DNA of 64,000 nucleotides from Marsupella aquatica (lineage: Eukaryota > Plantae > Marchantiophyta): NCBI GenBank assembly GCA_973895155.1, contig OZ316891.1:248001-312000 (forward strand). Reading direction: 5' to 3'. The number at the start of each line of letters is the position of its first letter. Position 1 is the first letter of the stretch. Position numbers and translations under genes: made by a program. The notes under the pieces were generated by a model. The model saw only the letters and a program-made list of their open reading frames with translations, was not told the origin of the DNA and did not search any database. Below, piece after piece: positions 1,122-34,502 of the stretch.

Positions 1122-1766
1122 AGTAACACGACATTCTAGAGATTGTCGTTTTTCGTAACAGATACTATGGTTTTTGTCTGTAGTCAACGGATATTACACT
1201 TGTTTTTTCTTTCTTTTGGTTAGCGCCTAGCGCTGGTTCCAGAACATTAATATTTTTAAATTTTCAATTTTATCTAGTTATTTTCATGTCGTTGTCCCTT
1301 AACTTAAACTTTTGTCCCTGTTAAAGCTTTGTTAGCGTCGGGCGCTAGTTTTCACACTCTGTCTGGCTCCAATATTGCAAATTCCAGAACCCTTCTTCGC
1401 CGATCGGTTGTTTAAGCCTATAACTGGATTTAGGGTGGGTCCTACCCTAAATTACTCCATCCCTGCATGGATTTTATTTTTCCTTCTCGTAGGCCGAACT
1501 GCGCTTTCTGAACTGGACTATTCTGAAATGATGTTGTATCTAAATAGCAGGGATATTGAAGGACGACATTATTCATGTAGAACAAATGGACACTCGGTTT
1601 GGAACCTCTCTTTGCAGCTATGACCACACCCTTGGCTTATATCTGACCTCGTCACATTTGGCACTAACAAGACGTTCAACTTGATGATGTGGTGGAAAAT
1701 GACGTTAATTTTTTGCAAACTTAGCCAAAAAAGTACACTTTTACCATAAGACTTTCCTGTTACCAG

Positions 1767-4700
1767 TTAAGAGTTATCTGATAACAGGAATTCTGTTACC
1801 TGTTTCCTGTCACCGCTGTTATACCCTTGCTGAGATAGGAATTGGACCTCAACTTCCGAAAGATTTGTGCCCTTCAAAACGGGCAGGGTATGAGGAAACG
1901 GGGGAAGATTCACCACATTACGACGGGGCCGACTCTTATAGCATGCATTATTGGGACAGAACCAAATCATCTCAGGATATGGTTCTCCCTTGAACATGCG
2001 GTATCCTTTGACAACAATGCCAACTACACCATCCGTTGACGGGTAACCAACCTTTTTCAGACGATTTTGACATTCATCTCAATCCAATTTACCACCAAGA
2101 GATCCATTACATTGAGGCCCTGCACCATGTTTGGTCACTCTTCGCAGGTGCCAAGCACCTGGTCGCACATCTGTCTCCAACACAGATGAGTCATGGACAA
2201 CCCTTTGGAGGTTCGGAGGTGCACTTTGCGGTGCTACAGAGGACCTTGTCACCCTCCTCCACGATGGAGTACTCCAATGACACCCTTCTTTGATTTTGCT
2301 CTCCGACAGATCCACAACGCCAATGTTATTGTGAACAGGTCCCTCTGCATTCGGGGAGAATTTGGTCTTGTTTAAGTTTTTCCTCTTCATGCCTCGAGTA
2401 TTTGGTGATGTTACAAGAATAGTGTCATGCCGATGGGAGTCTTGTGCCGAGATATTCCCAGAGGCCTGACCTTTCCTCTTCATAGACTTTGTTGTAACAT
2501 CCCCATTGAGTGGACCACTCCTTTCCAGGTCGAATTCAGCCGCACCGGAAAGAAGAATATTGGAAGCATCTTGGAAAAGTTTTGAAGAACCTGCCTGGTC
2601 CGCCGAACGGAATGCCAATTCCCAAATTGTAGGTCCGGTTCCTCGGTGAAGACCTCTCTTATACGCCGTGTATGCTGCAACTTGTGAGACACCCTTGTTT
2701 TGGTCCATCTCACATGCTTCGAATAGGCCAGCCTTTTTCTTAGTTTGCCAAGCCTTCATTATGGAATGCGCCGCCTCTGAAGTAGTACAGTTAGGAATCA
2801 TAGCGCTTTCCTCCACACTTTTGTTCTGCATCCACCATAGGAGCAGAGTTTAGGAAATATGAATTAGCCACATGTACATAAAATCAATGACAGCGCCTGG
2901 CGCTAGCAACATTCAAACTAAATTTTTGTAAATTTAAGAAACAAGTGGTCCATTAATACTAGCGCCGGGCGCTAGTATCAAAAACCAGATAATGATGAAC
3001 GAAACCTACGAGACCACACTAACTGAAAATAATGGTAGCGCGAAGCCCTAGTATGAGTTCGAGTGGTTACTGGATGTTGAAACTCACCAAACGAATGAAA
3101 TTTCCCCATTGACGCCATCGGACCACCCACCACGCCAACCAACCTTGGAGCATTCGAAGCTTCCCTAGAACACAATTCCCAGATCTCCACCATACATCAA
3201 TATCCCTTGAAATTCTGTATGCTCCAAGAAATGTGGACGCATTCCTTAAAGAGTCCCACATCTTCCGATGCTCATCTCGTTTTTCTTCCAATACACCTTC
3301 AATCGAGTGACGATGAAACGATTGATAGAAGTGAAACGCATCCGATCGCTCCTTTTCTGGGTTAGGATGTCCTCCGAAAAACACATTCTGAACATCATTC
3401 CATCCAGCTTGGGCATTGTCAGCCATGAATCCATGGATCACAACATTATCCAACCCATTTTCATGGCAAACCTCAATCATCAATTTCCAAGCTTTCTCTA
3501 AAGACTCTGAATCTTCTACTTTCAACTCACATGTGAAAATTGTGCAAAGAGCACGATAATTGTGATCATAAACATGTGCGCTAAAAGTTTAAAGTTTAGG
3601 GTTTAGGGTTTAGGGTTTAGGGTCTTTTGTCATCCTCCTCATCACATCAAAACTGACCCATGCCCCTTCCAATGGACCTCCAGGCTGCATTTGGCGCAAT
3701 AAATCAACTCCAGATCCGTGCCCTTTTACAGTCATTTTGAAAATATGTGGCCTATCCTCTTTACAGCCTTGACCTGGGAGCATGTAACGTTGCAGAAAGG
3801 GAAAGATTATGCATTTCTGCATTTCAACAAGAAACTCCAACTCACCTTTGCCTTTTTGGTCTTGCCGAACGCTTCAAAAAAGAGATGCAAACTTTTGAGG
3901 GGTCGAAACTACCATTAATGACTCCCAAATTTCTCTTTCCTCCAATTCACCAATGTCATTGTTGGACACACAAAGAGCCTTCCTTAAAGATCCAGTTATA
4001 GCGTTCTTCAGACCCGATGGTGTGGCACACGGCGTAGCTTCATGTTGTTTCTTTATGAAGTTGTGAGCAATCTTTTCAGCACCACGAGAAAAAACTTTTT
4101 GACTAGGATGAGCATGAGTTCCGACATGCACAGCAAGACGGGACATATGCTTCCAAGTATCCTCGTCTAGAAGTAGTTGAGGGTACATATAAAAAAGCAT
4201 TGCAGGACATGCTTCAGTACAAAAGGGTAATTGTTGGCAATAGTGACAAACTACGCCACCCTCGTCAATCATCTTACCTATGGTATGTGGCCCTGCAAGT
4301 TTGGGTGTCCCATCCCAAGCTTTACAATTTCTTCGTTTCTTCCGCAAAAGATAATCACACTTCTGATTCTGACATTCTAGTGCTCATGTACATGTCACTT
4401 TACCAAATTCCCAGAACTTTTTTGGTTGTACATTCACAAAGGTTGGAAATATTCGAGTCTAGAAGTAGCAGTCTTTTGGCCGATCCATGTCACGGAGTCT
4501 TGAACCTTTTGAAAGAAGACCTTCTACGGGAGGCAATTCAAATACAACATTTCCATTGTATTTTCTTGGGAGGCAATTCACCTGCTCATGCCTGAAATCA
4601 CATGTTTGGATGAATCGCAACAGTTCACTATGGCCAGTTGATTTGAGAATAGCATCCATCACGCTTTGACGGTAGACAATACCTCCCGCAACACCCCCTG

Positions 4701-5157
4701 CAACGTGTGTCTCCGCAACACCCCCCACAACGTGTGTCTCGGAAGGAAACTGACCTTCCATCTTGATCAAAGTTCCCGGATTGGGCGATTTTTGTGAATG
4801 AACGACAACATCCTCCTCATCACTATCGGAAAGGTGAATGATTGGAACCGGATGAATTTCATTCGTAACGGAATTATCTCAAAGATTGATATAGTATCTC
4901 TTCCCAGCGTTCAGTTGCCAAAATCTGACTCCATCATCGATATCAAACAATGCATCACCAGCCTCATCAGAAGCATCAACAGGTTTGATGGAAAGAATGT
5001 CATTGATGCCAATGTCAAATCTTCCACAAAGATAGTTCTCACTAACCTGTTTGTACGTATCGGAAGAACCTAAAGGAATGCGTACAATCTCTCCAGTTCC
5101 AGAACGTAGAAGCACAACTGAATTAGACATTGCGGAACAATAATCCCGAATTGACAA
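1767..5157 (-). pseudogene. Mutator-like (MULE) DDE transposase with N-terminal GCM/WRKY-like zinc domain, disrupted
   Basis: ORF pieces 4459-4770, 3874-4347 (CHYC..C.A...RLAVHVGTHAHP), 3610-3840 (WVSFD), 3067-3525 (GFMADNAQAGWN, DAFH at the MULE CxxH position), 2079-2831 (TTSEAAHSIMK, catalytic E helix) and 1767-1997. It has stops, frameshifts and an intron at ~2850-3070. Confidence 0.75.
3595..3622 (+). repeat. Interstitial telomeric repeat (TTTAGGG)4 inside the transposase coding region
   Basis: Four perfect TTTAGGG units lie between the RRMTKD and TFSAHVYD codons. Confidence 0.9.
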
Positions 5158-7911
5158 ACAAAGAAAATGAGAGAATAGGAGAACATAACCCGACTTAAGT
5201 TAAGTGAATTCGTAACAAACTCTAGAAGATTATCATTTGTGAATGACAAAACGGGTACTAGTCGTAAAATGTAGAAACATAAATGTTGTTTGTCATTTTG
5301 CCAACGTCACTACGTACTGGTAACATCAATAATATAGTTTGAGAAACATGATCAGATATTTACTAGCGCCCGGCGCTACCATAAATAAGTCATGGAATTA
5401 AAACCTAAAAACCAAACTTCATATGCTAGCGCCAGGCGCTATCATTAATCCACTTCCATTTAAAGGTGAAAAACTCTATTAATTTTATTGGAATAACAAA
5501 AATGTCAAAAGACATTGAGTTTGTTTGATATAATTGTTGTTTATAGGAAATATACACGTATCAAATATAGTTAGCGCCCAGCGCTGACATAATTTCATTG
5601 CTGACATCAGTGTTAATGATGTTATTTTAGTGGTTTTTGAATGCTAGCGCTTGGCGCTAGTATCGAAAGGAATGACTTGTATTATCCCAACGGTTATATC
5701 TAACAGTAAAGTGCATGAACGTACTCATTGTTTCACGCTTTTTGCAGTTGACTTCTTTAACAATAGCCTACGGATCATCGCTCCTCCCTTACCCCAGTTA
5801 AAAAGAGGCGTTACATATACTCATTCTAAACAGTATCGGCCACTTGTCCTTGTCATGATTGGTGAGTGAGATCCTTTTCTTCCGCATCGATGTACCTCCC
5901 ATGATGTCAACCGCCCAAGTTTTAAAGGTTTCCTGCTTGTTCTTTTTGTACGGTAATTTGTTCAGAGCGTGAGAATAGACACTGGCTCTATGTCATACAA
6001 GCACCTTCGCAAACTTTGGGGCTCCACGATGCAACCTTCAAGCGCTCCAAGCTCTCCAAGAGGGTATACCACGGTTCCGGAGGGAGATCAGGGTCATTGC
6101 GAGAGTACACAATCTTCATTCTCTGGGGCATTCTATTCGCGTCGTGTTACAAGATCGAGCGGAGCGATTCCTTCATCAAACACAACACTCCCGAGCCAGA
6201 AGCCAAGAAGGGGCAGAATGGAGATTGATGGCATGACCGATTACGCTTTGGGAGAGGGCAATGAGGTAGGACTTGGAATGGATGAAGTCATCTCCAAACA
6301 CATCATGTCGTTTGGGAAAGATTTCCGGGGGAATAAGAAGGAACCTCCACGGATTCCGCTTTGTCGCCTGGTCCACATGGAGGTTGTTTGGACGTTACAG
6401 AAGGAGAGTGCGTCAATTGAGAAATTGAAAGACGCATTCCAAAGTAGTGGATACAATCCCAGGATAGGAATGCGGTTTTTTGTACAGTCGACCAATTCGG
6501 ATGGTTTGGAGCAAATCTGCACTGAAGAGATCAGGGAGATTTGGGATGCAATTTGGGTTGCTGAGAATGAGAAGTTTGAGTTGGAGTGCGAGGCAGATCC
6601 TACCTTTATGATCTTGAAAGACAAAATGTTCTTAGTGTTTGATGGGAATCATCGACTTTACTTGTGGACGATGGTCACAAAGGAAAATCCTGACAACGTC
6701 AAGTATCATCCCAGAGTTCTCTACACAATTTTCAAGGGTGACAAAGCTTCGCAAATTCAGATTGAGGCGGCTATGCACACTGTGAACCAGTACGTTTTTT
6801 GCCCTAGCTTGTAATTAACGATTTCCGCAATACTTGGTTATTACATAAATACAGTGTTTATGGAGTGTTTATAGAATAATATAGTGTTTATAGGCTAATT
6901 GAGTGTTTAAGTTAAGCTAGCGCCCGGCACTAATAATTGAAAACCTGGCCTATTGCAGGTTAGGGCAGGCCGTTGTTGAACCGTCGTGGATCCTTGACGT
7001 AGACAGAATCCGGAGGATTCTTTCTCACGATCTAGAGCACTACAAGTCTATCATTGACAACGCCAATTATGCAAAGTTTGAGTATATCAAACAGAAGACT
7101 CAAAAACATTCTTGGTACACAAGAAAAATGCCTCTGGAAGCTCTAGTCTATATTTTATGCGAAAACAAATTTAAACCTTACACTAACCAGTTCAAGATGG
7201 ACATGGCACTGGCAGCAAGTCAAGGCAATCCTTGGTCCGCTGATGACATCACAAAGCGGCAATCGCTCATGTTGAAAGAGTCTACTAAAGATTGGTCCAC
7301 GAAAACGTCAAAAATCACTCCTCTTCTTAGTCCTGAGTTTGAAGATTTTCTAGGTACCTGTGTAGAGATGTACATTTTGACAGAGAAAAACAAGCAAGAG
7401 AAAAATCCAGATTCGGTTGTTTGCACTATGGACCGTGCCAGACTCTTCACTGCAGTTTCGACGCTTGATCCAAAATTGAGGTGTACATTGCTCGTTGCTC
7501 ACTGTACTCCAGAGTTGAGAAAACAATTCTTCCACCCTTCGAGTGTGAACGATGATCCAGTGAAGCAGTGGTGCCACACATGGCAAACATGGAATACCGT
7601 CAAGGGAATTGCAATTGGGATGCTACACTCGGCAATTTCCGTAGCGATTGAAATGCTACCGGTTGATAGGCTTGCCCAGTCAGGGTGTGACTCGATAGAA
7701 AATCTGATTGAAGTAATTTCAAGTGAATTTCGAAAGTATGGGGATCTTGTGAAGGCAAAGTTCTTCAACACCATGTGGCCATCAAGATACCCTGATAAAG
7801 AGGTATACACCAAGAAAAATCAGAAGAGGGCCAAGAGGTATTTGTATCGTTTCTACATTTGGATGGAAATTCATTCCCCGGATGCTCTTTGGGCGTATCC
7901 AGCCGCATTTA

Positions 7912-10900
7912 TGTGGTGCGTCCCATGGCTCCCTAAACCCAAGAAACCCCCCAGCTCAAGCCGATTCCCGCAGGTTTCGTGCTTGGCGAGGCCGTTTCCG
8001 CGGCTTAGCGGCATGGGACGCTGCTAACCTTCTACTACTACTATTAACATTTTACACACATATACTGGACAGATCCTTCATCGGGTCATGAGATACGTAG
8101 CCGGCCTAATATAGGCCTTCCCCTGTCTTCCCCTGTCTTCCCCTCCGTCTTGTTAGGTATGTTTGGATTCCGCCGCCGGAATGATCCCCAATAGGCTTGG
8201 TTAAGCCGCTAAGACCTCTCTCAGCTCGACACATCCAACTCTCACTCCCCTGCTTACTTTCCTTCCTTCTGTTGATGTGGGCACTCTTCACACAAGTTAA
8301 TGCGACACACAAATAGCAAAATGACTCATTCTGACTGAGTCATACCATGCACTTGCCATACAAACAGTACATCTCATACACAAGTTCTGCGAACTAAGCC
8401 GTGAGGCCAACTCTATTCAGCTCTTAGGCATGAGGAAACATGAATATACACAAGGGTCACTGTATGACTAACCGAGAGCTTCTCGTACTACTTGATCCCA
8501 GCCCGGCTGGTGCAAACTAAAAACTTGCTAAAGAAGAGGCCCTGAGCTCCCCGCTGCCCAGGTACTTATCCTGGTAGTGGATCCGCCATTCTTTGCATCG
8601 TAAGCCTAATCTACTTAACAGTAATCTACTTGCCCGAATCTACCTATGTACAGCAAGGCAGGAGCACAAGTGTTGCTCCTACCAGTGGGACCGCAATCCC
8701 ACTAAGCTAAGTGTCAGGGCCGCTCCTGGTTCTGATCCTAATCCTAAACGTGGAGATCCGTGCCCGCCCTGCCCACTCACGCCTCCTCCCTCCACGTCCG
8801 CCCTCCCTAAAAGGAACGGCGCCCTTGCACCGTCACGACACCGGTGGTGGATCCTCAATGGACGCCCCCAACACTTCCTCCTCAGCCACTGCCGTTGGCC
8901 CGCCTACTGACAGATTACCTGCCCTTGACCGAGTCAACTCTCCATCGGCCTGACTGGGTCCACCTTCGGCTTCAGCCTCGACAACTCCCACGGCTTCGGC
9001 TTCAGCCAACCCCACGGCTTCGGCTTCAGCCAACCCCACGGCTTCGGCCTCCCCTTCCCCTAGGGTAGTTGGATCCTTAGCCGTGACCCTGTCTGGGGTC
9101 GGTGCTGGGTCTACCTCCTTGATCACCACGGCCTGTGAAGTCGTATTACTCCTTGACCCTGAAGGTTTCCGCTTCTTCTTCGTTGGTGGCTCGGCAGCTG
9201 GTCCCTTCCCCTTCCCACTTACCTCCGGCACTGGTGCAGGTGGCGCGGCTTGTCCTTCGGCAATTACCACCCCTGGTAACTGGTTTGTCCCAACAGGAGA
9301 TGGACCTGCTGCAGCTAAGCATTTAAATACTACGGCTTGTTTCTTCAGCCGCTCTGTTTGGTTGTCGGCCCGCCGCTGTAGGTTCTCCATCTTCCTCGTG
9401 ATTTCCTCCAACTCCTCTTGGGTTTCATCCAGGTCCTTACGTGCCCCCTCCAGCTCGTTTTTGGCCTCCTCCTGCTCCCTGTGGGCTTCCTCCAATTCCT
9501 TCTTCAAGGTAGCCTTCTCCTCCTGGGTTGCTCTTAGCTCCTTGTCGAGCTCTGCAATGATGACAGACTCCATCTGGTTCATCTTGGCGTAAGTCTGTTC
9601 GAGCATCTCGTCCTTCTCCCTTAGGTCGGCCTTGAAGCTGGCCGTCAGGGACGCAAGCTCCTGCTGCAGCGCCATAATCCCTTGATAGGATTTCCCTAAC
9701 TCGACCTCCTTCTGCTCAAGGGCTCCGCGGATTTTCTCGAGCTCCCCTTTCAACGCCCATTCCTTTCTTTGGGTCTCCGCCATGGCCCGGCTGTTGGCTG
9801 TTATGTGGGCCTCCTCTGTATTCTTCAGCTCTTGCTTCCACTTTTCCCTTTCTTTGATCGTGTCGGCCAACTCTTCCTGCGTCTGAGTTAGTTTATCCTT
9901 GATATTCTGATTATCAGCCTGCGCGGCGTCCAACTGCCCCTGCATGATGTTCAGCTCATGTCGTTTAATCCGCAGTTCATCTTGGGCTTTCTTGGCCGCC
10001 CTTAGATCTTCAATCTCGGCTCCCATCCTCCTAAGCCGCCGAATGACCTCGTCCTTCTTGCTTCTCTCTAAAGCCACCGCTTCTTCTAATTGGTGCTTCT
10101 CCAACTGCTCCCTATGGAAAAAGGGTCCTACCTCCAACTCCTCTCCAAAGATGCCGAGCGCAAGTTCCCCACACATCTCACCATACTCCATGGCTCTATT
10201 CTTAGCGTAGGTGGAGTAAGTAGAAGTGATCGGCATCGCCCATCGTGGCCTCTGCTCCCAAGCCGTCCTGCGGATCTCTTCAATCGTGGCTAGAGGTTTG
10301 CTTCCTTTTTCGGCTAGCCGCCTGATGTCCTCCGGCCAATCTCCTCCTGGTAAATCCTTTTCCTTAGCCAGGGCGGCCTCTTCCTCCTGCTTGATTCGCT
10401 CCTGAAATTCCTGCACCGTCTGTTTTATGCCGTCGAAGCTCGGGGGAGCAACATCTGGTGGGGGAGACTCAGGGCTACTCTGCTGGTTGGGGTCCCCTCG
10501 CACTACCCTTGGAAGTGTGGGGACAAACCGGCCACAGGTCCTTACTCCTGGAACGTGATGGTCCGACCCATAGCCGGAATTATCATGGCTGCAGTCCTCC
10601 ACTGCCTCCTCTACCTCTTGGATTTCCGGCTTCTCCCTCTCCTCTTCCTCGGTAGGAGCTTCAGGCAATTCTGCCTCAGATTCGGAGCTTGAGGTTCCCA
10701 CGTACATTCGAACACCTGGCTTGGATTCCGGCCTGATTCTCTCCTTGTCTCCAGCAAAGGGGTTTTCTCTTGTGAGCCGGTGTAGGCCTACCTCTGTAGT
10801 AGTGTCCTGCATTGTTGCCGTTGCCGTTGTTGTTGCCGATGACGATTTCTTTTCTTTCTCCAGTAGTTTCAGCAAACTCTGCATGCCTGGTTGCTGCATC

Positions 10901-12559: not shown

Positions 12560-15500
12560 ATTTCACAAGTGGATTATTGTAAAGGAGGGAGATCTTGTTT
12601 GTGACTTATACTCAATGTATCCTGCCAAGGGTAAACTACCCCCAAGGGAAATGTCCAAGTGGGAAAGAATTCACTGCCCATGGTACCTTGACACAGACAA
12701 GTGGGATTCACCCTTTGATGAAGTGGAGAAGGATTGGTTTCTGAAACTTGCAAAGTCGCAGATCCTTCCCAACATTGTTTCTAAGATGAAGCAAGGTCTC
12801 CTTAGCGACATCGATAAATCTTCTACGGAGTTAGAGACAATCTGTGAGACAGCAGTTGTCCATGTAGATAGGAGCCGCAAGCCACGAGGGAAAGTTAAAA
12901 TAGACACTGCAGTGCCAAGTGCCTCCACGCGATCCGGAAAGAAACATAAGTTTTCAATATTTTTTTCAAATGTTTGCTAGTGCCCGGCGCTGCCATTCTT
13001 GTGTTTCAATCTTCATCAGTGTTTGCTTGAAGGCCCTAATCCCACATTCTTTGCAATATGTTCATAGGTCAAAAGAAGTCAGATGCAGATGGCACAGATG
13101 ATACGAATGTTACCCCAGAAGCTTCAAAAGCAAATACTGGCGCTTTGCCAGATCCACTTACACCAGTTAATTCTGGGAAATCGATTGTCCCAGTCGATGC
13201 GACCAGTACAAAAAAGAAAAGCAAAAGGACTCGAGATGCTGGACAATCAGAACGACATTCTCAGGCTGTCACTGGGCTCCAACGTGATGTTGGGGATTTT
13301 AAAGCCAAGTTGTCCCGTCATTGTTTCGTTGAGACCAATGTCAGTGAACTTGTGGACAGTGTGTTTAATAAGGAGGAGAAGCCGGAATGGGTAAATAATG
13401 CCAAAAAGTGGGGGAAAGACCTGATCAAATCTGGATGCCGGCTGAAAGGAGTGGTGAGGGGTGGGAAGCAAAGACCTTTTGGTGTTGACGCTGGTTTTAT
13501 TTACTTGCCAACTGGGCTAAAACCGACTTTGCTTGACAGAAAGGTCCCTAAATGGAACGTCCCCGACTGTACCCTACTCCGATCCTTTTTCCAGGCAATG
13601 GATCCTTTTTTGTTGGATGACGGAATTATTGCGATACTCCATACGGGGGAGTATGATCAAATTTTGCAGGTCATCTCCGCTTGTCAAGAGTCCAAGAAAT
13701 TCCAGTGTCTATGTACACATAATGTCGTCATGGGGTTCCCAATGTACAAAGCAAAGTCTGATTTACGGGTAATTTCGTTGATCCTTTTGCTAGCGCCAGG
13801 CGCTATTCATATTATCTATTACTTTCTTTTTTTTATTTGACCTTATTTCAGGTAAACTATTCAACATGATTTTGTGGATTATTTGCTAGCGCCCGACGCT
13901 ATTGTAATCTGAGGGTCCTTCCTCTATTTTGTTCCCTTTTCAGGTATTCACTTTACGTTTGGATGTATTTTCGCGGATATCATCCAAGGTGAAAGTCCCA
14001 AAAGATCCTAAGTTCAAACCCCTTTCAAAAACAGAGGATCCTTCCATTACAAATCTGATTGGACTTCCCTTTGCGAAGGTTGATACAACTCCAGAGCTTG
14101 AATTTGCCGGGAATGCCAGACTACATCCAGGATTCATGCAGTCTGTGTTGGAACTAATTACGTGTCCAGGAGATATTGTTCTGGATTGGGCTGTAGGTTC
14201 GGGGAGTACATTTGTTGCAGGTGATAATTGTGGTCGATTTGTAATTGGACTCGAGAATAGGAAGGAGTTTGTTGAAACCGCTTCTAAGGTATTTCTGGAT
14301 CTTCTTACTCCAACAGAGTCTGAGCCCGAAGCCCCTCCAAAGTCTACAATTTCAAAACAAAAGATAGACAAACTGAAGTCTGTCTTAAATTTTGATTCTG
14401 AAGATGAGGATGAGACAGAAGAGGGGGAAGAAGAGGAGGATCCTAACATTCCCAAAGTGTCTCTTACCAGAGAAGATCCAGGATCTAATGGAGGGAGTGA
14501 CAGCGGAGACTCTTCTGAGTAAGAAGCTTCCGAGTAAGCTCTTAAGTAAACCCGGTGTTTTAGTAGATTACCTTATTCTCTCTTCGATTTCTCATTTTTC
14601 TTTTCATTTTTTAAAATATTCTTGGCGTTGACATAAAACCCTAAACTTCTCGTCCTCAGGTCAGACTGGAATCTTCGCCGGTGTTTCCAACTCAGAAGGA
14701 AAGTAGCTAGGCAATATATTAAAACTCCCGAGAAACCATTTGTACTACCTTCCTATGATGAGAATATTGCTAGACGAGCTGATAGTGTGCGGACCCTCCA
14801 TTCGGAGCATAAAGGTTTGAGATTAAGGAGAGGGTCTGATAGAAAATTTATTCGTAGTTGATATGTTGATGATATGGCCGAGAAAGTTTTTTTAGACATG
14901 GAGGCAGAATCCACCGACAGGTCCGAGTCAAGTGAATCAGAATTCTCAGATTGATTTGCCTTGAAAGGGTATTTTGGGATTTATATACACTGAAGTTATA
15001 CTAGCACCGGGCGCTACTATTATGTAACCTGGATACATTGTTTATTCAAATGTATTCGATACATTGGATACTTTTGTGGTGTATCTTTATTCTATTATGT
15101 TCTCTATATTGCAATGTTTTTATGGTAGCGCGTGTTGCTACCATAATTTAATGTCCATGATCATATACCCGCATATTTTTCAATTTTGTTTTTGTCCATT
15201 TTTGAGGATCAGTTTACTTCCTAAGACTAGACATTCCGAGTGGTCAAAAACAAGTGACCTGAAACTCAGTATATGTTGGGTCTATTTCTCAATTGCATTA
15301 TGCTAGCGCTTGGCGCTACTAAAACATATTTTGGAAACATTGTCCGTTAAGTGTTTTCCACATGTCAGCGACAACTATTTTGTTTGTTCCTTCTGTTAGT
15401 AACGTAAACATTTTAATATTGTAATATTAGCGTCGGGCGCTACTATAACTGTACGACGGTCAATGCAATCTTACAATGATTCTCCCGTACGCTCTGGATG

Positions 15501-15985
15501 ATGTCAGTGGAAGTTTCGAGGTAATCTTTTGTCCCGTTCTAAGTTCGTTCGGCCTGTCGCGACTCGCATGTGAGCTGGTACCGGATTTTTCTCATCCAAA
15601 CGGTCACTTCATGTCACAACGGGACTTTGGATGCCTGAAACATTTCGGGATTCCAATACTAGTTTTGGTCGACCGTTTCTGAATGGAGACGAAGGTAAAC
15701 GTTGCAACTATCATGTGAGAAGGGAGTGACCGTTCCGTGTTGAACCGGTAGTTTGGGGACTTTGAGGATGCAACCTCCACCCCCTCCCTCATTACGATGG
15801 GCGTATCCAGGTCGAACGGGTTTGCTTATAATACTTGGGAGATTACATCCCGACTGCCTAGTTTTGCTACTGCTTTAGTGGTTTATGTTCCCACTTTCGA
15901 TAATCTTCGAGCTCTTTCGCTGACCGGGGTTGTATTGACAACTATATCTTTGAATTTGCCATCCGCTGCCTAGAGGTTTCATACC

Positions 15986-16462
15986 ATGAATAACTCGAGG
16001 AGAATCTCCGTGGCCTCTTTTCAAAGACACACCACAATCATTTCGGAGGAGGGCTCGGTTCCAGAAACTAAGCAGCCTGAATGGTCGGACACAAGTGCTT
16101 TCCGCAACCATTTTAGTCTCCCCCAAGACAAAGCCATTAGTCCTGGTGACAATCTGATCCCATGGCTGAGGGATTCTCCGCCTAGGAGATTTGCAGAGCG
16201 GTTTACGATTCATTGGCCACCTCCTCCTTACAGTCCAACTCGGGAGGATGAGATGAGGAAACAGGAAGAACTTGGCCGTGTTGATTTCCAGAACACGACC
16301 ATTCCTGGTGTGTTTCCCCGAACCGGTGATGAGCGAGTTCCGTCGATGGCGTTTGTGAGGAACCGTGAGCACGATTTCGTTCCAGATAGAGCCCGATCTA
16401 ATGCTGGAGTGAACAATGAATGTGGCTCATCGACCAATGAGCGGACTAGCGCCCGGCGCTAG
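15986..16462 (+). CDS. Unknown transposon-associated ORF, paralogous to 19788-20192
   Basis: Shared block SAFRNHFSLPQDKAISPGDNLIPW / STFQNHFALPYDEAISPGERNLPW. Confidence 0.45.
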   Translation: MNNSRRISVASFQRHTTIISEEGSVPETKQPEWSDTSAFRNHFSLPQDKAISPGDNLIPWLRDSPPRRFAERFTIHWPPPPYSPTREDEMRKQEELGRVDFQNTTIPGVFPRTGDERVPSMAFVRNREHDFVPDRARSNAGVNNECGSSTNERTSARR

Positions 16463-17289
16463 CGTTGGTCTCTAAGACTATGGTGCCCATAGCGCTCAAG
16501 TTTTTTCGAATGTGATGAAGACTTTGTCGGGACTCGACCGAAATTTAGAAATCTTGTCGTTAGATGTAGCCATTTTGGTTATCGATTGTGTGGAGTTTGG
16601 TGAAGTGCCTAGCACTAGTTTACTGTTCGGCCATTTTAAGCGAGAGGCATCGGATGCGCGTAGCTTTTTGAAACTTTCATACCTTCCGTTTACGGTGTGG
16701 TTATGCGGATCACTTTGATCTTTTGTAAGCGCCTGGCGCTACCATCTTACTAAAAAAAATTTGTATCGTAAGACTTTGTGGATTTTGGGGTGGCATTCAA
16801 TTATGCGAATTGGTTGGAGTTGGCTCTTTTGGATGTAAAACCCTAAACGTCGGTCCGATGGTCCCGGTGGGTTTGTCGTATTTATCACGTCGGCCTCCAT
16901 CAGACTGGGCGATATAACTAGCGCCCGGCGCTAGTATCTTCACCGGTCCGATGGAGGCGCTCGAGTTTCTTATTTAGAGCTCCATTCTGTGCAATTACAA
17001 TGGCAGCACCTGGTGCGTGCCTGTGCTTTTTAGTATAACCCAGGTTCAAATGTACCGTTCCCCTCGGCTTAGTATTTGAGCGCCTGTTGCTATTCTACAT
17101 CATTTTTTTTGGACTTGACTACAATCTTCTAAACACCCCGTTTTGGGTGTCAAGTTCTTGCTTAACAACAGAAAAGTTTCCGGTATTTTTTGTTTAAGTT
17201 TGGTGTATTCGGTTTCCTGTTTCCTGTCATCAGTTCCTGTTTTGGGTTTCCTGTTTTCCTATTTCTCGTCTTATGTAAATACCCCTTCA

Positions 17290-19370
17290 TGTTGACCAAA
17301 GCAGGAAGCCTCGCACCAAAGCAAAAGTAGATACTACGGCCCCAAGTGAATCAACAAGATCTGGAAAAAACGTAAGTATAATTGGTTTCCTTTGGTTAGC
17401 GCCCGGCGCTGCTATGGAAGTGAATATCTGTTTCATTGTTAGCGCCCGGCGCTGATATGAGAGTCAATATTTCAGAAACTGAGTTGGTATTTTTAGTCCA
17501 AAAGTGTATATTTATGGCCAAGTATTACAGATAGTTTGGCCAGCACTGGGCGTTAGCATTGTCGTTGTATCAATATTAACGGATATCACCTCGGCATCCA
17601 TTTGAACAAGGAGAAAGTCAGACGCCGTGGGGAGCGGAGATACAAAGATAGATGCCACCCCAGAGGCTTCTGAAGCCAATACCGGAGCACCATCCGATCC
17701 AATTACTCCCGCCGACAAAGGGAAGGCGATCGCTCCAGTGGATGTGACCAGTACAAGGAAGAAGAGAAAAAGGACCATTGAAGGTGGATCTTCCTCTCGA
17801 GAAAGTGCTGCTACTGTAGGTCTTCAATGCGAAGTTGGGGACTTCAAGAGTAGACTTTCAAGGCATTGCCTTGTTGAATCTAGCATCTCAGAATTCTACG
17901 ACTCAACGTTTAACAAAGGGGAGAAGCCTGACTGGGTGAATGGTGTAGAGAAATGGGGAAAGGACCTCATGAAGTCTGGCTTCCGAGAGAAGGGCATTGT
18001 GCGTGGTGGAAAGGAGAGATTGTTTGGAGTCCACGCGGGTTTTATTTACCTTCTGACTGGATTTAAACCATCTCTGCTAGACAGAAAAGTTCCAAAATGG
18101 AATGTCCCTGACCACACTTTGGCCACCTCTTTCTTTCGTGGAATGGATCCATTTTTATCTGATGATGGAATGCTGGCCATTTTACATAACGGGGAGTACA
18201 ATCCAATGTCTCCGGTTATATTGGCCTGTCAGGATTCGAAGAAATTTCATTGCATCTTGTCACACAATGTTGTCATGTCAGTTCCAATGTACGCGCCGAA
18301 GACTGACCGACAGGTAAATTTATCATCGTGACAGTCATCTGGTTTGCGGTTCAAAAAATGTGTATGAATACATCCATTGACATACCTTTCTTGGGTTATA
18401 TTACAGATCTTCACGCTCAGGCTTGACATCTTCTGTCGAGTGTCTGAAAAAGGGAAGGTGCCAAAAGACTTGAGGTTTAGACCTCTGTCTGCCATGGAAG
18501 ATCCCTCCATAACTAATTTAATTGGACTTCCCTCTCTCAAAGTCGATCCAACACCTGAGATGGAATTTGCTGGAAATGCCCGTTTGTCGGTTGGATTCAT
18601 GCAATCTGTCATTGAGCTCATCACTCGTCCTAGGGATATTTTCATGGATTGGACAATGGGGTCAGGTAGCTCTTTTGTAGCTGGAGACTATTCTGGGAGG
18701 TTTGTAATTGGAGTGGAGAATAGGAAAGATTTCGTTGAAACTGGTTCCAAGGTGTTCTTAGATATACTTTCTCCAAAGGAAGTCAAAACTTTGCCACCCC
18801 CAATTCAACCACCCAAAAAGAAAAGGAGAGACAAGCTCCGTTCTATACTTAATTTTGACTCTGACGACAAGTCAAGTGGTGGTACAGCAGACAAGGATGA
18901 GGATGGCACACCTGAGGGGAAGGGTCAGGAACAATCCGCTGGCCAGAGTGACAGCGATGACTCTTTCGAGTAATGTTCTAAAACTCGTAAGCTTCTTTCT
19001 CCTTTCCAGTTCCTTCATGCTTTTGTGCTATCCATTCATACAATCGATTGACAAACTTCTATTCTCACCCAGGTCCGAATGGAATACGAGAAGACGCTTC
19101 AAACTCAGAAGAAAAGTAGCTCGTTTTGAAATTGTCACTCCGGAGAAACCATTTGTTTTACCCTCTTATGCTGAAAACGCTGCAAGAATGGAAGATAATT
19201 AGAGGACTCTTTGTTGGGAAAACAAAGGTCTCCGGCTACAAAGAGGAGTTGATAGAAAATTTGTCCGAAATCCTTATGTAGACAACGTTTGTAGGAGCAA
19301 GTATGTAGATGATGAGGCGGTCTCTACCAAGAGGTCACAGAGCTCCGAATTGGAATCGTCCGATTCTTGA
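17290..19370 (+). pseudogene. 5'-truncated second copy of the methyltransferase-like gene
   Basis: Exons ~17290-17371, ~17610-18313, 18406-18969 (DIFMDWTMGSGSSFVAGDYSGRFVIGVE) and 19073-19370 are colinear with 12900-14954 and have the same intron positions. Confidence 0.8.
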
Positions 19371-19787
19371 AGCATTTTTGCGGCTTAGATTTTGCCAGCG
19401 CCGGGCGCTGTTATCATAATACATGTATTTATTATCCCAGATATGATTTGTTTACATTACATTGAAAACAAAATGTATCAAATTACTCATTTCCCTTACT
19501 AGCGCCGGGTGCTCCCCAAACATCTATTTTTCTAATTGTGAATTTTGAATCCTTCATCCATTCCTTGGCCCCGCATATTTTGTCGTTACCGAAAATAGTC
19601 GTCTCTTTCTCAACGGTCCTTTTTGCGTTGAACCTTTCTGTGATACGTTTTTGCTGATCTCCGAACCTAAACTCTCCATTAGGTCACTCTCGCAAGTTAT
19701 TTCAGACACAACCTCTCTCGAAGTCGGGTCATTTCAACAACACCGGTCTTGTCTTTAGCCTAGATTTCATTTAACAGTGCCCACCAG

Positions 19788-20192
19788 ATGGAGAAGAAGG
19801 AGATCATGTCTTTGGAGGAGATGCTTGCATTCTTCACTCCTTCCAGAGTTCGACCGGACGAGAGTCACTTCAACTCCTTCGAGTCCGTTCATGGTGACAC
19901 TTCCAGCGAGACCTCAACCTTCCAAAATCATTTTGCGCTCCCGTATGATGAGGCGATTAGTCCCGGGGAGAGGAACTTACCTTGGATTGACGACCGGGAC
20001 ACTCCGCTTGCAGTTCCTGATCGGTTTTCATTTCATTCTGTCATTCCTGCTGATGGTATTCAGCCTATTTGCGATGAGTACAAGAGTGACTGGGACGTGT
20101 TGACTTCCTCGATACAAATGTTCCAGGCCCCGGGAATCAGAATGCGGAGTTTCAGCGCCCCTCGTCTTCTTATGTGTGGCACAGGGGTCTAG
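19788..20192 (+). CDS. Unknown transposon-associated ORF, paralogous to 15986-16462
   Basis: Shared NHF.LP.D.AISPG...PW block, and the same position downstream of the MTase-like gene. Confidence 0.45.
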   Translation: MEKKEIMSLEEMLAFFTPSRVRPDESHFNSFESVHGDTSSETSTFQNHFALPYDEAISPGERNLPWIDDRDTPLAVPDRFSFHSVIPADGIQPICDEYKSDWDVLTSSIQMFQAPGIRMRSFSAPRLLMCGTGV

Positions 20193-21332
20193 GTTTCAAG
20201 CAAAACCACAGACGGGCCAGGGCGGGCATCGATGACGACTACCAATCTCAGAGCTAAAGTTGTTCACGACGGAGGTGGTTATAGTGACACAAGCTTCAGT
20301 GCCCATAGGCTTCCCATTTAAGCTAGCACCGAGCGTTGCTTTTGTTCGTCTTGGACCGTGGGATTTCTCCTATGGTTGATTTGAAGTTCATGTATTTTTG
20401 GCTATATGTTTAGGCCCATTTTGGATCAGCGGCCCTATTATGTGTGGCTCAGCTCAAGAAAAAGCACATACGGGCCAAGGCGGGCTTCGGCGGGCTTCGA
20501 CAACTACTGGAAATCGCTAGGATTATAGTGCTCGGGCTGGGGGTGCTTTCAGTGACAGAAGGTCTAGTTTTAGTTTACAATTAAGCTAGATTTAAGCTAG
20601 TGCCGAGCGCTACTTATGTTCATGTTATGCTGGGGGTTGATTTGAAGATGATCTGTGGATGGTGTAATACCGGTTATATGTTTTGACCAATTTTGGAAGT
20701 AAGGAATGCAGTTTTGGATCGGCTCTCTTGTTCTTTCATGGTCATTCATTAATTTCTAGATTTGAGCTAGCGCCGAGCGCTGCTTATGTTCATTGTGTTC
20801 CGTGTTTAGGCACTGACGTTGATTTCTTGAAGTCCGACATTTAATGTAGCGCCCATCGCTGAATATTCAACGTCTGCCGTGGCCTCTCTTTGTTGGAAAT
20901 GCTTCAAATTGAGTTTCCTGTGTTCACTTCTCAATTGATATGACGGACAATATCTTCCAGCATACTAGCGTTGGGCGCTGCTAATATCCAAAAATTTTGG
21001 AAACTCCTTTTTCTAATGGCCGTTAACTAAGTTCCCTATTCTCTTCTTGATTGACGTTACGTAGAATCTCCAATCTCCATCATTTTCATTATTTTAGGAA
21101 CACCGAAATTTTGGCTTTCCTGCCGGCATACTAGCGTTGGGCGCTGGTAATCTTAGGTTTTCGGCAACACCTTTGTTCTAATGGCCCCTACTTTCCTTCA
21201 CAATTGGATGGTGGTATTGAAAACGATTGAAAATGGGGTTTATTGATGGTGATTTTTAAACTTCTTGACCAAATAATGGAGCTCAATCACATGTTTTTTT
21301 TCATTTCTCCTGGTAACAGTAATTGTTTACTG

Positions 21333-24300
21333 TTACTGTTTCCTGGTTCCTGTCGTTTGTAAATACCCCTCACAAAGGAACGAAGCGTATGCTTCCACAA
21401 AATGTCTCTCATGTTGAGAGTCACAATAAACAAAACATTCACGTTGAGAAAAAAGGGATGCCTTCATCACTTGACCGCCAGAGAAAAAGTCAAGAATCAA
21501 ATCCCCCAACTCGGACAGTGTTTGGATGATCTTTTGGATCATCCGTGTGGGTTTGGCGTGAGAATTCACCCACCCACCCCGAGCGCTGACAGTCTCAAAT
21601 CGAGGTGCCATGTGCAAAAGTATTGCCGCCTCTTTTGGGGTCATCATATTTCTTAGATCTTCATGCAATGACTCCTCATCCGCGTCCTTTGCCTTTCCCT
21701 TTCCCTTGACCTTCTCAACCACAAAATCAGTATCCTTTTCACCGTACACCCATTTTGGCTTCATCTGGTTGGGCTTGAACACTTCATCCCATCTGACGTT
21801 CTCTTTGCGAGAAATTCCCGCAAAGATAACTTCTTCTATTCCTCCCTTCCAACCCCGCTTCCAACATGAGTCGTGAGGGTGAGGTTGATCATCTCGGTAA
21901 TAACTCCCATACTCAATGTGAATAGTCAGAGTTTTTGAATGTCCTAATTTATGAAGAGCGCTTAGGACATTCAGTACAAGGTAACCCGGATGGACAGTTA
22001 TCATCACAACAATGGTGGGATTCCGTGGTAGCTTTACTATGTATTGGAAGAGTACCAAAATCTTTGCTTCGGTCCACTCTTTCTGTTGAAGTCGGCTGAA
22101 ATCAACAATTGCAAGAGGGCATGTTGGAGATTGTTCTTCCAACGACTCCGGATCCACTGTCTTCATTAGGTTGTTACTAAAAAATGTAACCCACGGTTGG
22201 GTCCGAGAACTTGTCCCACCGCCAAACTTCTGATAGTAAATATCATCTAGATGCATCACCAATGTCATTGGCAATATCTCACTCTCTTTTGTATGATTAG
22301 ACTTCAATAAATTTGTCAACCATACTTCACCAGCCGCTCTTCGGCACCTGTTCAACTCCGATTTGGCACCTAACAATGGGAGGACCTCAATTACTTTAAC
22401 CCAATCACTATCTGTTGGGAAGTTTTTTGGATCCTTCTTGAAGTAGTAATCTCCAATAAGAGACTTCAGTTTGATCAATATCTTCACCTCCTTTGCAAAG
22501 TCCTCCATTGCTGGAACATCTGACTTATTTGTCGGATCCTTCTTCAATAAAACCTAACCTGACTTCACCTTGTTCAAAATTCTGGTCAAATCTCTATTTG
22601 AGATTTCACCATCAAAACAACGAAACATTGCGACCGTTATACCCTTTTCAGACCTTTTGTTTCCCTGTGTACCACCTCCATCAGGAAGATGTCCATCAAT
22701 CCACATCTGGCACACTAACCGCCAGAGCTTGAAAAGATCATTCTCGGCAAAAAGCAACCAATATACATTTTTCAAGTCTTTTTTCCCCATGGTCATCCTT
22801 GCCAATGCCAAATAATCCTACAGTAAAAAATTAGGGGAAAATAAGTTATCTACAATCAATGAGATTTGACAACAAACTATCACTTGCTTGTTGGACAGAG
22901 ACCATCTCCATCCAAGTCATAACCAAAAGTAAAAGGAAGAGAAATCTCTAGAATGGACGATCACACTCTTGGACAGAGACCATCTCCATCCAAATCATAA
23001 CCAAAAATATATTGAACTAAAATCAATGTAACGGACGGTCACACTCTTGGACAGAGACCATCTCTGTCCAAACAAGAAAAATGTTTCTCACCTGAATTTT
23101 TTATTCTCTTGGGCGTTTGACTTGTTGTCCCCGTGCTTTGGCTTTCTTGGTGCTCCGCATTCAAGGAATTGCTTCCTTGCATGAACAATTGTATCTTTGA
23201 AGCACGATTGAAACACCATCGTCGAATTGATGGCATTTAATCTCATTGAGTGCTCAACCAATATCGCCGATGGTGTAAGGTCTCACAATAATCTAGACTT
23301 CCTATATTTTAACTTTTTTGCCAACACTGTCAGCTTGGCATTAGTTTTAGCCCATTCGAGAACCCACTTGGCCGCCCTAGCCAAATATTGCCCACTGATG
23401 GCAAAGAAACCAATCTCGCCTTTCTTCACTCCAGCAAGAAAGTCTTTGCGGTCGTTCTCCGTGCTGTCAAAATGGAGCAACTTTCTAAGCTTTGGATTAT
23501 AAGGAAGCAGGTCCGCGACGTGAGGTTCATGTCCAGGGTTTTTGACCATGGATTTAGCTATGTGCTTCACATGGGTACTACTGAGCATCCTGTAACATAA
23601 TCTTGCAGGTGCAGGCATATATAAATTTCTCCACTGGAATAGAAAACAGTTCATTTATCCCAAAAGTATAGTACTGCTCTATTCTCTGGAGAACATCATT
23701 TCCTTCTAAGACCTTCTCCTCAAGGGCATCAAGTTTATCTCCCTCATCTTCTGGGAGCATCTGTACGTCCGTAGGGGTTGATCCCACAAGAGACTTGTTA
23801 GTTTTATGTTTCTTCGCTACTGGCTTCTTCTCGGGTTCCTTCGGCAATAACTCAATTTTCTCGCGCTCCTTCCTCTCTCTTAGTCTTTGCTTCCCTACCA
23901 CTTGTTTGGTGCTTGTCCCAGCCGTTGTTCCTGCAGTCTCTGATGTTGTCTCCTGAGATATTTTTTAGGTTTGGGAACTTTGTTAACAACTACTGGAAGC
24001 TCGTTCACTGCTACTGGTGCAACATTTGTAGGCTTGTGTAATGATTCTACCCACTTTTTTGCATTATCCATCGCAAACTCCTCCGCAAATGCAATTTTCT
24101 TGTCAAGGCAAACACCTGATTCCGAAGATAGGAATCCTGTCTTGTCGAGCAAATTACTTAAAATCCATGTCACCGGAAATGTATAATTCCCTTGGTGTTT
24201 ATGGATATTCAACTTCACATATTGAAACCCATACATGATGTCAAGTGGAAGAATCCCCTTCACTCCAGCAATCACCTTTTGAGTTGAATACGACTTAGGG

Positions 24301-24342
24301 AAAAAGCCCATTGCCATCACGCCAAGTTCTCCAGCAGCAGAC
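21333..24342 (-). pseudogene. Second, divergent type of ParB-like + amino-methyltransferase-like gene, 5' end cut by an LTR
   Basis: The N-terminal part CYRMLSSTHVKHIAKSM...FFAISGQY is ParB/Srx-like (GxH position). The C-terminal NSHAKPTRMIQKIIQTLSELGDLILDFFSGG resembles motif X-I of beta-class N6/N4 MTases. There are several frameshifts and an intron at ~22820-23045. Confidence 0.6.
22891..23071. repeat. Three ~75-80 bp-spaced copies of TTGGACAGAGACCATCTC; the third forms an 11-bp hairpin
   Basis: Copies at ~22891, ~22969 and 23047. The third reads TTGGACAGAGA-CCA-TCTCTGTCCAA at 23047-23071. Confidence 0.75.
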
Positions 24343-32800: not shown

Positions 32801-34433
32801 GTCTGTCATCATTGCAGAGCTCGACAAGGAGCTAAGAGCAACCCAGGAGGAGAAGGCTACCTTGAAGAAGGAATTGGAGGAAGCCCACAGGGAGCAGGAG
32901 GAGGCCAAAAACGAGCTGGAGGGGGCACGTAAGGACCTGGATGAAACCCAAGAGGAGTTGGAGGAAATCACGAGGAAGATGGAGAACCTACAGCGGCGGG
33001 CCGACAACCAAACAGAGCGGCTGAAGAAACAAGCCGCAGTATTTAAATGCTTAGCTGCAGCAGGTCCATCTCCTGTTGGGACAAACCAGTTACCAGGGGT
33101 GGTAATTGCCGAAGGACAAGCCGCGCCACCTGCACCAGTGCCGGAGGTAAGTGGGAAGGGGAAGGGACCAGCTGCCGAGCCACCAACGAAGAAGAAGCGG
33201 AAACCTTCAGGGTCAAGGAGTAATACGACTTCACAGGTCGTGGTGATCAAGGAGGTAGACCCAGCACCGACCCCAGACAGGGTCACGGCTAAGGATCCAA
33301 CTACCCTAGGGGAAGGGGAGGCCGAAGCCGTGGGGTTGGCTGAAGCCGAAGCCGTGGGAGTTGTCGAGGCTGAAGCCGAAGGTGGACCCAGTCAGGCCGA
33401 TGGAGAGTTGACTCGGTCAAGGGCAGGTAATCTGTCAGTAGGCGGGCCAACGGCAGTGGCTGAGGAGGAAGTGTTGGGGGCATCCATTGAGGATCCACCA
33501 CCGGTGTCGTGACGGTGCAAGGGCGCCGTTCCTTTTAGGGAGGGCGGACGTGGAGGGAGGAGGCGTGAGTGGGCAGGGCGGGCACGGATCTCCACGTTTA
33601 GGATTAGGATCAGAACCAGGAGCGGCCCTGACACTTAGCTTAGTGGGATTGCGGTCCCACTGGTAGGAGCAACACTTGTGCTCCTGCCTTGCTGTACATA
33701 GGTAGATTTGGGCAAGTAGATTACTGTTAAGTAGATTAGGCTTACGATGCAAAGAATGGCGGATCCACTACCAGGATAAGTACCTGGGCAGCGGGGAGCT
33801 CAGGGCCTCTTCTTTAGCAAGTTTTTAGTTTGCACCAGCCGGGCTGGGATCAAGTAGTACGAGAAGCTCTCGGTTAGTCATACAGTGACCCTTGTGTATA
33901 TTCATGTTTCCTCATGCCTAAGAGCTGAATAGAGTTGGCCTCACGGCTTAGTTCGCAGAACTTGTGTATGAGATGTACTGTTTGTATGGCAAGTGCATGG
34001 TATGACTCAGTCAGAATGAGTCATTTTGCTATTTGTGTGTCGCATTAACTTGTGTGAAGAGTGCCCACATCAACAGAAGGAAGGAAAGTAAGCAGGGGAG
34101 TGAGAGTTGGATGTGTCGAGCTGAGAGAGGTCTTAGCGGCTTAACCAAGCCTATTGGGGATCATTCCGGCGGCGGAATCCAAACATACCTAACAAGACGG
34201 AGGGGAAGACAGGGGAAGACAGGGGAAGGCCTATATTAGGCCGGCTACGTATCTCATGACCCGATGAAGGATCTGTCCAGTATATGTGTGTAAAATGTTA
34301 ATAGTAGTAGTAGAAGGTTAGCAGCGTCCCATGCCGCTAAGCCGCGGAAACGGCCTCGCCAAGCACGAAACCTGCGGGAATCGGCTTGAGCTGGGGGGTT
34401 TCTTGGGTTTAGGGAGCCATGGGACGCACCACA
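29810..34433 (+). repeat. 5' LTR (4624 bp)
   Basis: TG...CA ends, direct repeat of 40658-45329, followed by the PBS. Confidence 0.95.
29886..33512 (+). pseudogene. LTR-encoded ORF, 5' LTR copy with one premature stop
   Basis: Same protein as 8833-12483. CAG>TAG at 31257-31259 splits it into 457-aa and 747-aa ORFs in one frame. Confidence 0.9.
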
Positions 34434-34455: not shown

Positions 34456-34502
34456 GCATTTCTTAAGCCGTGAGATATGAAGTTAGAACGGAAGCGTAGG
34501 TA

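Follow-up and report, generated by a model that had tools for sequence, protein, structure and literature searches.

Candidate self-binding accessory proteins and a dispersed palindrome in nested, likely Mutator-like transposons of the liverwort Marsupella aquatica

Introduction

In the brown alga Ectocarpus, the large DNA transposon Sola1-1_Ec32 is described as carrying, opposite its transposase, a gene for a protein of 1104 amino acids (aa) in which a ParB-like domain is joined to an N4-cytosine/N6-adenine (N4C/N6A) methyltransferase, and similar proteins are cited there for green and red algae (PMC12477816). The Plavaka transposons of red algae are reported to carry the accessory genes PAG2 (PF01555 with SET) and PAG3 (ParB with a 2-oxoglutarate (2OG) oxygenase), which have homologs on Mutator elements of Chondrus, and arrays of inverted repeats beside PAG3 are proposed there as a self target (bioRxiv 2025.02.11.637652). 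Here we analyse a stretch of 64,000 nucleotides from the liverwort Marsupella aquatica (contig OZ316891.1, positions 248,001 to 312,000; hereafter the window), the left part of which consists of four DNA transposons, likely Mutator-like and all decayed, that are nested in one another and are designated Z, A, B and C. Elements Z, A and B are carriers of copies of one spliced gene (gene 1) with a putative ParB-like start and a methyltransferase-like end, element C carries a second, distant family (gene 3), and a 15-base palindrome recurs in the non-coding DNA of the first three. We put forward, tentatively and as a reading that falls just short of being probable, that the accessory protein is likely non-catalytic and would bind the palindromes of its own element, probably keeping that element unsilenced.

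As in Sola1-1_Ec32, the two domains are found in a single protein of about 1100 aa (approximately 1157 codons for gene 1, from the coordinates) encoded on the other strand from the transposase in a large DNA transposon, the insertions are nested, and the protein is proposed to bind or modify its own element. The two are likened by description only: Sola1-1_Ec32 is a Sola-1 element of a brown alga for which methylation is predicted, whereas the present elements are Mutator-like, come from a plant and encode proteins in which motif IV is missing. Moreover, the passages on Sola1-1_Ec32 name no target motif, whereas a palindrome is present here. With PAG2 and PAG3, as described, the locus shares PF01555 and ParB-like accessory genes on large DNA transposons, Mutator included, as well as inverted repeats as a proposed self target; in contrast, those are separate genes fused to SET or 2OG-oxygenase domains, and their repeats are tandem beside PAG3, while ours are dispersed in introns and spacers.

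The VANDAL elements of Arabidopsis provide a further precedent, since they are Mutator-like and carry the accessory gene VANC, whose product is reported to bind short family-specific motifs in intronic, intergenic and terminal non-coding DNA (PMC5735166). A family-specific motif enriched in non-coding DNA (29 of 30 sites) is likewise found here, but the motifs of VANC are non-palindromic, 8–9 bases long and tandem, whereas the present site is a dispersed 15-base palindrome accompanied by a bacterial-type protein of different domain make-up; anti-silencing is proven for VANC, whereas here it is inferred. Among the bacterial ParB family, VirB of Shigella is described as an anti-silencer that loads at a palindrome and spreads (PMC10653881). 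The GxxR-type motif and the two-fold 15-base site in many copies recall ParB/parS and VirB, from which the liverwort system differs in being eukaryotic, in having no identified helix-turn-helix and in having no ParA. Finally, the fold and motif order of the beta-class methyltransferases (CcrM, MboIIA, RsrI, PvuII, bdelloid N4CMT, Marchantia DN4MT1) recur here, gene 1 adding a PF01555 match and motif I, but DPPY or SPPY is absent, motif I of gene 3 is shortened, and the proteins are transposon-borne and multi-domain.

The novelty implied by the original prediction, made from this DNA alone, was thus too high, given that genes of this type have been published for Sola1-1_Ec32 of Ectocarpus and for Plavaka and Mutator elements of red algae. 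What the locus adds is a candidate target site, together with two distinct families that both seem to have lost catalysis; our literature search, which left most subscription journals outside, turned up no report of a comparable gene or palindrome on a Mutator element of land plants.

Structure and conservation of gene 1

In element A, gene 1 occupies the plus strand from approximately 5960 to 14953 and the transposase the minus strand from approximately 5130 to 1827, about 0.8 kb apart, in agreement with the prediction of a transposase lying back-to-back with a spliced gene. The intervening shared divergent promoter region (5131–5956) contains four palindromes (5364, 5427, 5572 and 5645). Exon A (5957–6790, start codon uncertain) encodes the ParB/Srx-like domain with its DGNHR motif and has four relatives (44–77%). 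Exon B is split by a retroelement into a 5’ part (6959–7910), encoding a middle region without family match (Pfam search negative), and a 3’ part continuing into exon C (12560–12947), where the splice donor has decayed relative to the copy in element B. For exon B no longer relative was found, which is weak evidence, and searches of Pfam, PHROG and DGQHR-type families gave no helix-turn-helix family match. Exon D (13068–13768) encodes a low-complexity linker and the N-terminal half of the methyltransferase-like domain, including YLPT, and exon E (13944–14518) contains motifs X, I (DWAVGSG) and II (IGLE) followed by an acidic tail. The last exon, F (14660–14953), is basic and then acidic, includes one in-frame stop, and shares 64% aa identity with the element B copy. 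Both motifs on which the gene had originally been recognised were located, VFDGNHRL in exon A and GDIVLDWAVGSGST...GRFVIGLE in exon E, but, contrary to what had been supposed, the gene continues beyond motif I with the acidic tail and a further exon.

Two further copies that had been predicted are real. Element Z retains a piece of exon B on the minus strand (1–781), cut on both sides, whose translation is 69% identical to that of exon B (68.7% over 259 aa by tblastn; pS 0.83 and pN 0.19 against element A), and element B retains the 3’ half of the gene on the plus strand (17285–19370; the end of exon C and exons D, E and F), with 60–71% aa identity over three exons. A small third open reading frame (ORF) lies downstream of gene 1 in element A (15974–16462, plus strand) and has a decayed counterpart in element B (19764–20270; tblastn E value 1e-13); no convincing family match was found for it in either element.

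Between elements, the proportion of silent differences in gene 1 (pS) is 0.71–0.83, i.e., saturated or nearly so, whereas that of replacement differences (pN) is 0.17–0.27 across four exons; dN/dS, where computable (exon F, element A versus element B copy), is 0.15. Because silent sites are saturated while pN is low, gene 1 has evolved under purifying selection and was required in the lineages that were active. This bears directly on the view that the gene is passive cargo of the Pack-MULE kind (from Mutator-like element, MULE) and that small duplications gave rise to the palindromes as a by-product. Such a view would lead one to expect the decay seen in every copy here, but it is largely refuted by selection acting between elements with saturated silent sites and by conserved intron positions; furthermore, the sequences flanking the palindromes are unrelated and the same arrangement recurs in algae, so that we give it hardly any credence.

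The methyltransferase-like domain

Exon E scored above the cut-off of the N6_N4_Mtase family PF01555, the comparison recommended in the original prediction (35.1 bits versus 26.7; E value 1.7e-8), and matched a DpnA-type structure (PDB: 5hek; E value 6e-7), while the element B copy and gene 3 each reached 23 bits, under the 26.7 cut-off. For exon D, an ESM Atlas search gave PF01555 as a lead only (0.88). Alignment of exons D and E with 26 phage enzymes gave an hhalign probability of 96% over 203 columns and placed YLPT opposite DPPY, although in low-confidence columns whose position shifts in a global alignment. The claim of a DNA transposon with an intron-containing, bacterial-type amino-methyltransferase-like gene finds support, with the addition that this gene evolved under selection.

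The catalytic motif IV, searched as [DNSH]PP[YFW], is present in 0 of 76 collected relatives, only three of which cover the motif region of gene 1, and is not found in frame in any of the three window genes; the one DPPF in the window is off-frame and non-coding. The two known eukaryotic N4-methylcytosine (4mC) enzymes are reported to keep this motif, as TSPPY and SPPY (bioRxiv 2021.02.12.428880; PMC10406627), and eukaryotic clades of N6A methyltransferases have been described, some of them inactive (PMC4738411). Because neither family has the DPPY motif, both are probably non-catalytic binders, as judged from the sequences, in line with the earlier suspicion that a degenerate DPPY might mark an inactive binding module.

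It is nevertheless conceivable, though in our opinion unlikely, that the protein functions as an amino-methyltransferase whose active site is non-canonical, writing 4mC or N6-methyladenine (6mA) on the palindrome, e.g., at its central CCNGG, as a self mark that blocks 5-methylcytosine (5mC) or recruits activators. Bacterial 4mC enzymes act on CCNGG-type sites. In gene 1, motif I (DWAVGSG) and the glutamate of motif II are retained, and exon E is better conserved than the other exons; in gene 3, 27 of 30 rows have an Asp where the catalytic strand ends; and for the algal counterparts, modification of the carrier element has been proposed. On the other hand, the motif kept by eukaryotic 4mC enzymes is lacking in all of the collected relatives and in frame in the window, motif I of gene 3 is one residue short, and the palindrome varies most at its central CCNGG.

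Comparison of gene-1 with gene-3 profiles gave no significant match. In a tree of 78 columns around motif I, built from 12 gene-3 rows, 2 gene-1 rows and 26 phage enzymes that had been selected because they contain both motifs, both plant families were on long branches, and one origin was not distinguished from two (p-AU 0.25).

Gene 3 of element C

The second family, like the palindrome, was not described in the original prediction. Gene 3 (21370–24342, minus strand) is cut by a long terminal repeat (LTR) at 24343 and encodes a putative ParB-like N-terminal part, a helical region and a beta-class methyltransferase fold. There are 65 relatives at E values up to 0.001, and two of the 10 that were looked up are hypothetical proteins of Riccia sorocarpa, distantly related to gene 3. 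The family is diverse, forming 65 clusters at 50% identity, and one member, P0069 (1009 aa), seems to span the complete domain arrangement.

The structural model (predicted local distance difference test, pLDDT, 84) aligned with CcrM (PDB: 6pbd) at a Z score of 16.8 (root-mean-square deviation 3.8 over 209 aligned residues; Foldseek E value 1e-9), and with MboIIA (16.2), RsrI (15.4), and PvuII and bdelloid N4CMT (both 14.9). The modelled fold of gene 3 is thus that of a beta-class amino-methyltransferase, in which the catalytic strand precedes motif I, and D151, at the end of strand 147–151, would correspond to the motif IV position. At this position the family has D-F-x-R (D-F-S-R in the window); of 66 rows, 30 cover it, with D in 27, F in 27 and R in 24. 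Motif I is DFFSGGQ, one residue short compared with DxxxGSGTT, and motif II is variable. One intron of gene 3 contains three 78-base repeats (22891–23072), each with an inverted repeat, the third of which is perfect (TGGACAGAGA-CCA-TCTCTGTCCA).

The ParB-like domain

The motif VFDGNHR is kept in the four relatives of exon A (44–77%), and DGNHR is invariant in 5 of 5 sequences. An ESM Atlas search with exon A gave as its top result DUF3723 (0.95), which we take to be ParB-like (the literature search gave no paper with both terms), and a cluster with 11% ParB_N at 0.93. Weak matches centred on the motif were obtained to ParB-like PHROG families (E value 0.18–0.27) and to DGQHR (E value 0.05), in 2 of 5 sequences each. 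Against a profile of 36 close phage ParB proteins, exon A scored above 100 of 100 column shuffles, with an hhalign probability of only 7%, while the gene-3 counterpart was equalled by 2 of 100 shuffles in the same test. Neither exon A nor its gene-3 counterpart returned anything in searches of PDB, phage or plasmid sequences, and a metagenome scan with the ParB-like alignment gave no locus. Membership of the gene-1 N-terminus in the ParB/Srx group is thus plausible but weakly supported: the ParB/Srx-like start that had been predicted is favoured by the DGNHR motif and the weak PHROG and DGQHR matches, and disfavoured by the lack of a Pfam match, the low hhalign probability and a poor fold model.

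The dispersed palindrome

The palindrome TAGCGCCNGGCGCTA occurs between 1221 and 21146 in 30 copies at up to three mismatches, 2 in element Z, 19 in A, 9 in B and none in C. In the window up to 24342, LTR sequence excluded (19.7 kb), there are 24 copies at up to two mismatches and 30 at up to three, against expectations of 0 and 0.19 (100 dinucleotide shuffles) and counts of 0 and 1 in the other 44.3 kb of the window, the test being post hoc in that the palindrome was read off the same DNA. Although predicted exons make up 63% of this DNA, 29 of the 30 copies lie outside them (binomial p 7e-12), in introns of both genes, in the shared promoter (four copies) and, for the rest, in 3’ DNA. Their flanks are unrelated (0 of 435 pairs above 60% identity), which speaks against tandem multiplication. 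The palindromes are common to elements whose silent sites are saturated, and the 3’ regions of A and B can be aligned with each other at no more than exon F, the small ORF, the palindromes and the end. The site is a sharply defined candidate target kept across diverged elements, and the locus suggests that an enzyme became a binder. Scanning metagenomes for the palindrome yielded 118 loci, which had no match to gene-1 or gene-3 proteins and which we regard as chance hits.

Changes in the core are mostly those that 5mC decay would give (22 of 28 are C>T or G>A). They concentrate in the central CCNGG, with 20 changes in 120 positions versus 7 in 120 at the CG sites, and on the plus strand they favour G-U-compatible pairs (22 versus 9; p 0.03, uncorrected), a skew that an RNA hairpin would also give. 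This last feature is among those that might be explained if the protein were a transposition helper, bridging the ends of an element of more than 15 kb or steering its insertion towards related elements, or if the palindromes served the transposase or acted as RNA hairpins and the protein were unrelated to them. For a helper one may cite the three of three junctions that lie inside genes of related elements, the condensing and bridging of DNA reported for ParB proteins (PMC10653881), and the apparent need for mudrB in integration (PMC6446971). However, nesting is common in transposon-rich DNA and LTR elements nest here too; element C received B, yet is without TAGCGCCNGGCGCTA; and element ends have their own repeats, the nearest palindrome lying 190–480 bases inside the ends, which carry a separate subterminal repeat where the transposase would bind. 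As for RNA, only one compensatory change is found in the 30 copies, and many copies lie outside predicted transcripts. We hold these explanations to be improbable.

A self-repressor, loading at the palindromes and damping transcription so as to limit copy number, would account for the four palindromes within the 0.8-kb divergent promoter. P1 ParB is reported to silence genes flanking its site. Yet 26 of the 30 sites are in introns and 3’ DNA, the abundance of variant contigs points to a family that attained a high copy number, and the only proven eukaryotic precedent, VANC, is anti-silencing; repression is accordingly very doubtful.

Proposed function

Binding of the non-coding palindromes by a likely non-catalytic protein remains the reading that we tentatively prefer, and it retains one half of the proposal that the gene may mark or protect its own DNA: protection draws support from the non-coding palindrome, while marking with 4mC or 6mA is weakened. 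The protein may dimerise, as would suit a two-fold site, and recognise it through the methyltransferase-like domain or the middle region. The ParB-like domain might then allow loading at the palindromes, followed by spreading or bridging over the element in the manner of ParB at parS and of VirB at its own site, and occupancy would shield the promoter and introns from 5mC silencing by the host, as VANC does for VANDAL elements. Each family may evolve its own site, as elements A, B and Z on one side and C on the other would illustrate, C having a different inverted repeat and lacking TAGCGCCNGGCGCTA. If this is true, plant transposons would have a second way of evading methylation, and a sequence-specific tool for the epigenome might come of it. 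A bolder version, which we think rather unlikely, is that plant Mutator elements run their own parS/ParB-like system, in which a nucleoside triphosphate (NTP)-gated, ParB-like clamp, directed by a pseudo-methyltransferase reader, would load at a family-specific palindrome and spread over the element against 5mC silencing; such a system would be a second, bacterial-derived anti-silencing system of plants, independent of VANC, with catalysis lost in two lineages.

Several observations weigh against palindrome binding by an inactive protein. Exon E is the best conserved part of gene 1 (pN 0.17), as expected of an enzyme, and retains motif I (DWAVGSG) and the acidic motif II (IGLE), while the motif IV position of gene 1 falls in the low-confidence hhalign columns mentioned above. 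Exon A has no Pfam match, its fold model has a pLDDT of 41, and a Foldseek search with this model was empty; no helix-turn-helix was identified in gene 1 by the family searches of exon B. The palindrome enrichment is post hoc, and the G-U skew of its changes has a competing explanation. The inverted repeat of element C, being three tandem copies in one intron, makes a much weaker case, and only one intact pair of transposase and accessory gene exists in the window, that of element A, element Z being a deleted piece.

A nest of Mutator-like elements

The original prediction treated the region as one large Mutator-type transposon, but it is a nest of four decayed, likely Mutator-like elements, because each of three related ends (1826, 17284 and 21368) breaks into a gene that belongs to a different element. 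Thus the transposase of A is interrupted by Z, the gene-1 copy of B by A, and gene 3 of C by B. The copy at 17285 consequently belongs to B, into which A inserted. A single transposon is ruled out by these three ends, a tandem duplication of gene 1 inside one element was also rejected, and bacterial contamination is ruled out by GT-AG introns, nested plant retroelements and relatives in liverworts.

The end of Z (1745–1826, minus strand), which interrupts the reading frame of the transposase of A, reads GGGTATAACAG inward and has subterminal repeats of the ACAGGAA type. The right ends of A (17200–17284, minus strand), inserted in the gene-1 copy of B and also with subterminal repeats, and of B (21290–21368, minus strand), inserted in gene 3, both read GGGTATTTACA inward. 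All three share GGGTAT and have 2–4 subterminal TT[CA]CTG words in their last 120 bases, where 0.08 would be expected from the window average. The partner ends lie to the left of the window, no element having both ends inside it. All three Mutator-like junctions fall in coding sequence of a related element, and a preference for kin elements is possible.

Contigs from four of six sequencing runs (three studies and three organisms, one of them possibly the source sample) were compared over 12570–22000, which they covered in 30, 30, 30 and 29 of 30 bins. At 21369, at least 18 and at least 29 contigs (two runs) run into unrelated flanks, and uninterrupted gene 3 past this point is present in 2–3 contigs among those listed (three runs; continuation read by eye); 21368 is therefore a true mobile end of a multi-copy family. 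At 17285, one contig stops, among those listed from the sequencing runs.

Directly next to its piece of gene 1, element Z has on the plus strand a C-terminal transposase-like piece (782–1121) with a SWIM-type zinc finger below the cut-off (PF04434; E value 0.021, 14.8 bits), for which no cross-match to the element A transposase was found within the window. We infer that Z had the head-to-head arrangement of A and has undergone an internal deletion. The decay of the copies was correctly predicted and is evident from in-frame stops, a lost splice donor and insertions; the changes are mostly C>T and G>A.

The transposase

The transposase of element A (1827–5130, minus strand) is spliced and decayed, with stops and frameshifts; its C-terminus has been displaced by element Z and a simple-repeat tract breaks the frame. 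It contains D (SFD), D (FMAD), DxxH, W and E (TTSE), with a spacing, by eye, of D..~66..D..29..H..~100..E and W about 20 before E. The second D is followed by DAFH, in which we take DxxH to be a variant of the CxxH of MULE transposases. That motif is given as CxxH alongside the Muta1 spacings of 69, 24, 112 and 18 (W before E) in the account consulted (PMC5225508). Single transposase exons matched no MULE model in Pfam and no plasmid or PDB protein. Because of the motif spacing, the weak SWIM match and the element ends, the transposase is likely Mutator-like; the assignment to the MULE-type DDE transposases rests on these three features, Pfam giving no match. A survey tabulates 50 MULE groups with extra ORFs such as PMD, SET and FAR1, and its main text does not contain the word methyltransferase (PMC6446971).

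Retroelements in the window

The insertion in gene 1 is a solo LTR (7912–12559, minus strand) of 4648 bases, bounded by TG...CA and a 5-base target duplication with one mismatch, and is 98.9% identical to the LTR at 29810–34433. A Ty3-type gag-pol with Pfam matches is located at 34500–40669. The Ty3-type LTRs (7912–12559, 29810–34433 and 40658–45329) are 4.6 kb long and 98–99% identical, and each includes a long coiled-coil ORF, which in the solo LTR is intact at 1221 codons; it has no significant Pfam match and constitutes an extra gene inside the LTR itself. An 18-base unit forms a tandem array inside an LTR copy (52378–52624). A second subfamily of the same retrotransposon, about 85% identical, is interleaved over 24343–60200 in nested, partly deleted copies. 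Finally, a 631-codon ORF on the minus strand (47974–49869), CpG-poor (observed/expected 0.3) and without a significant Pfam match, may be the extra gene of another retroelement.

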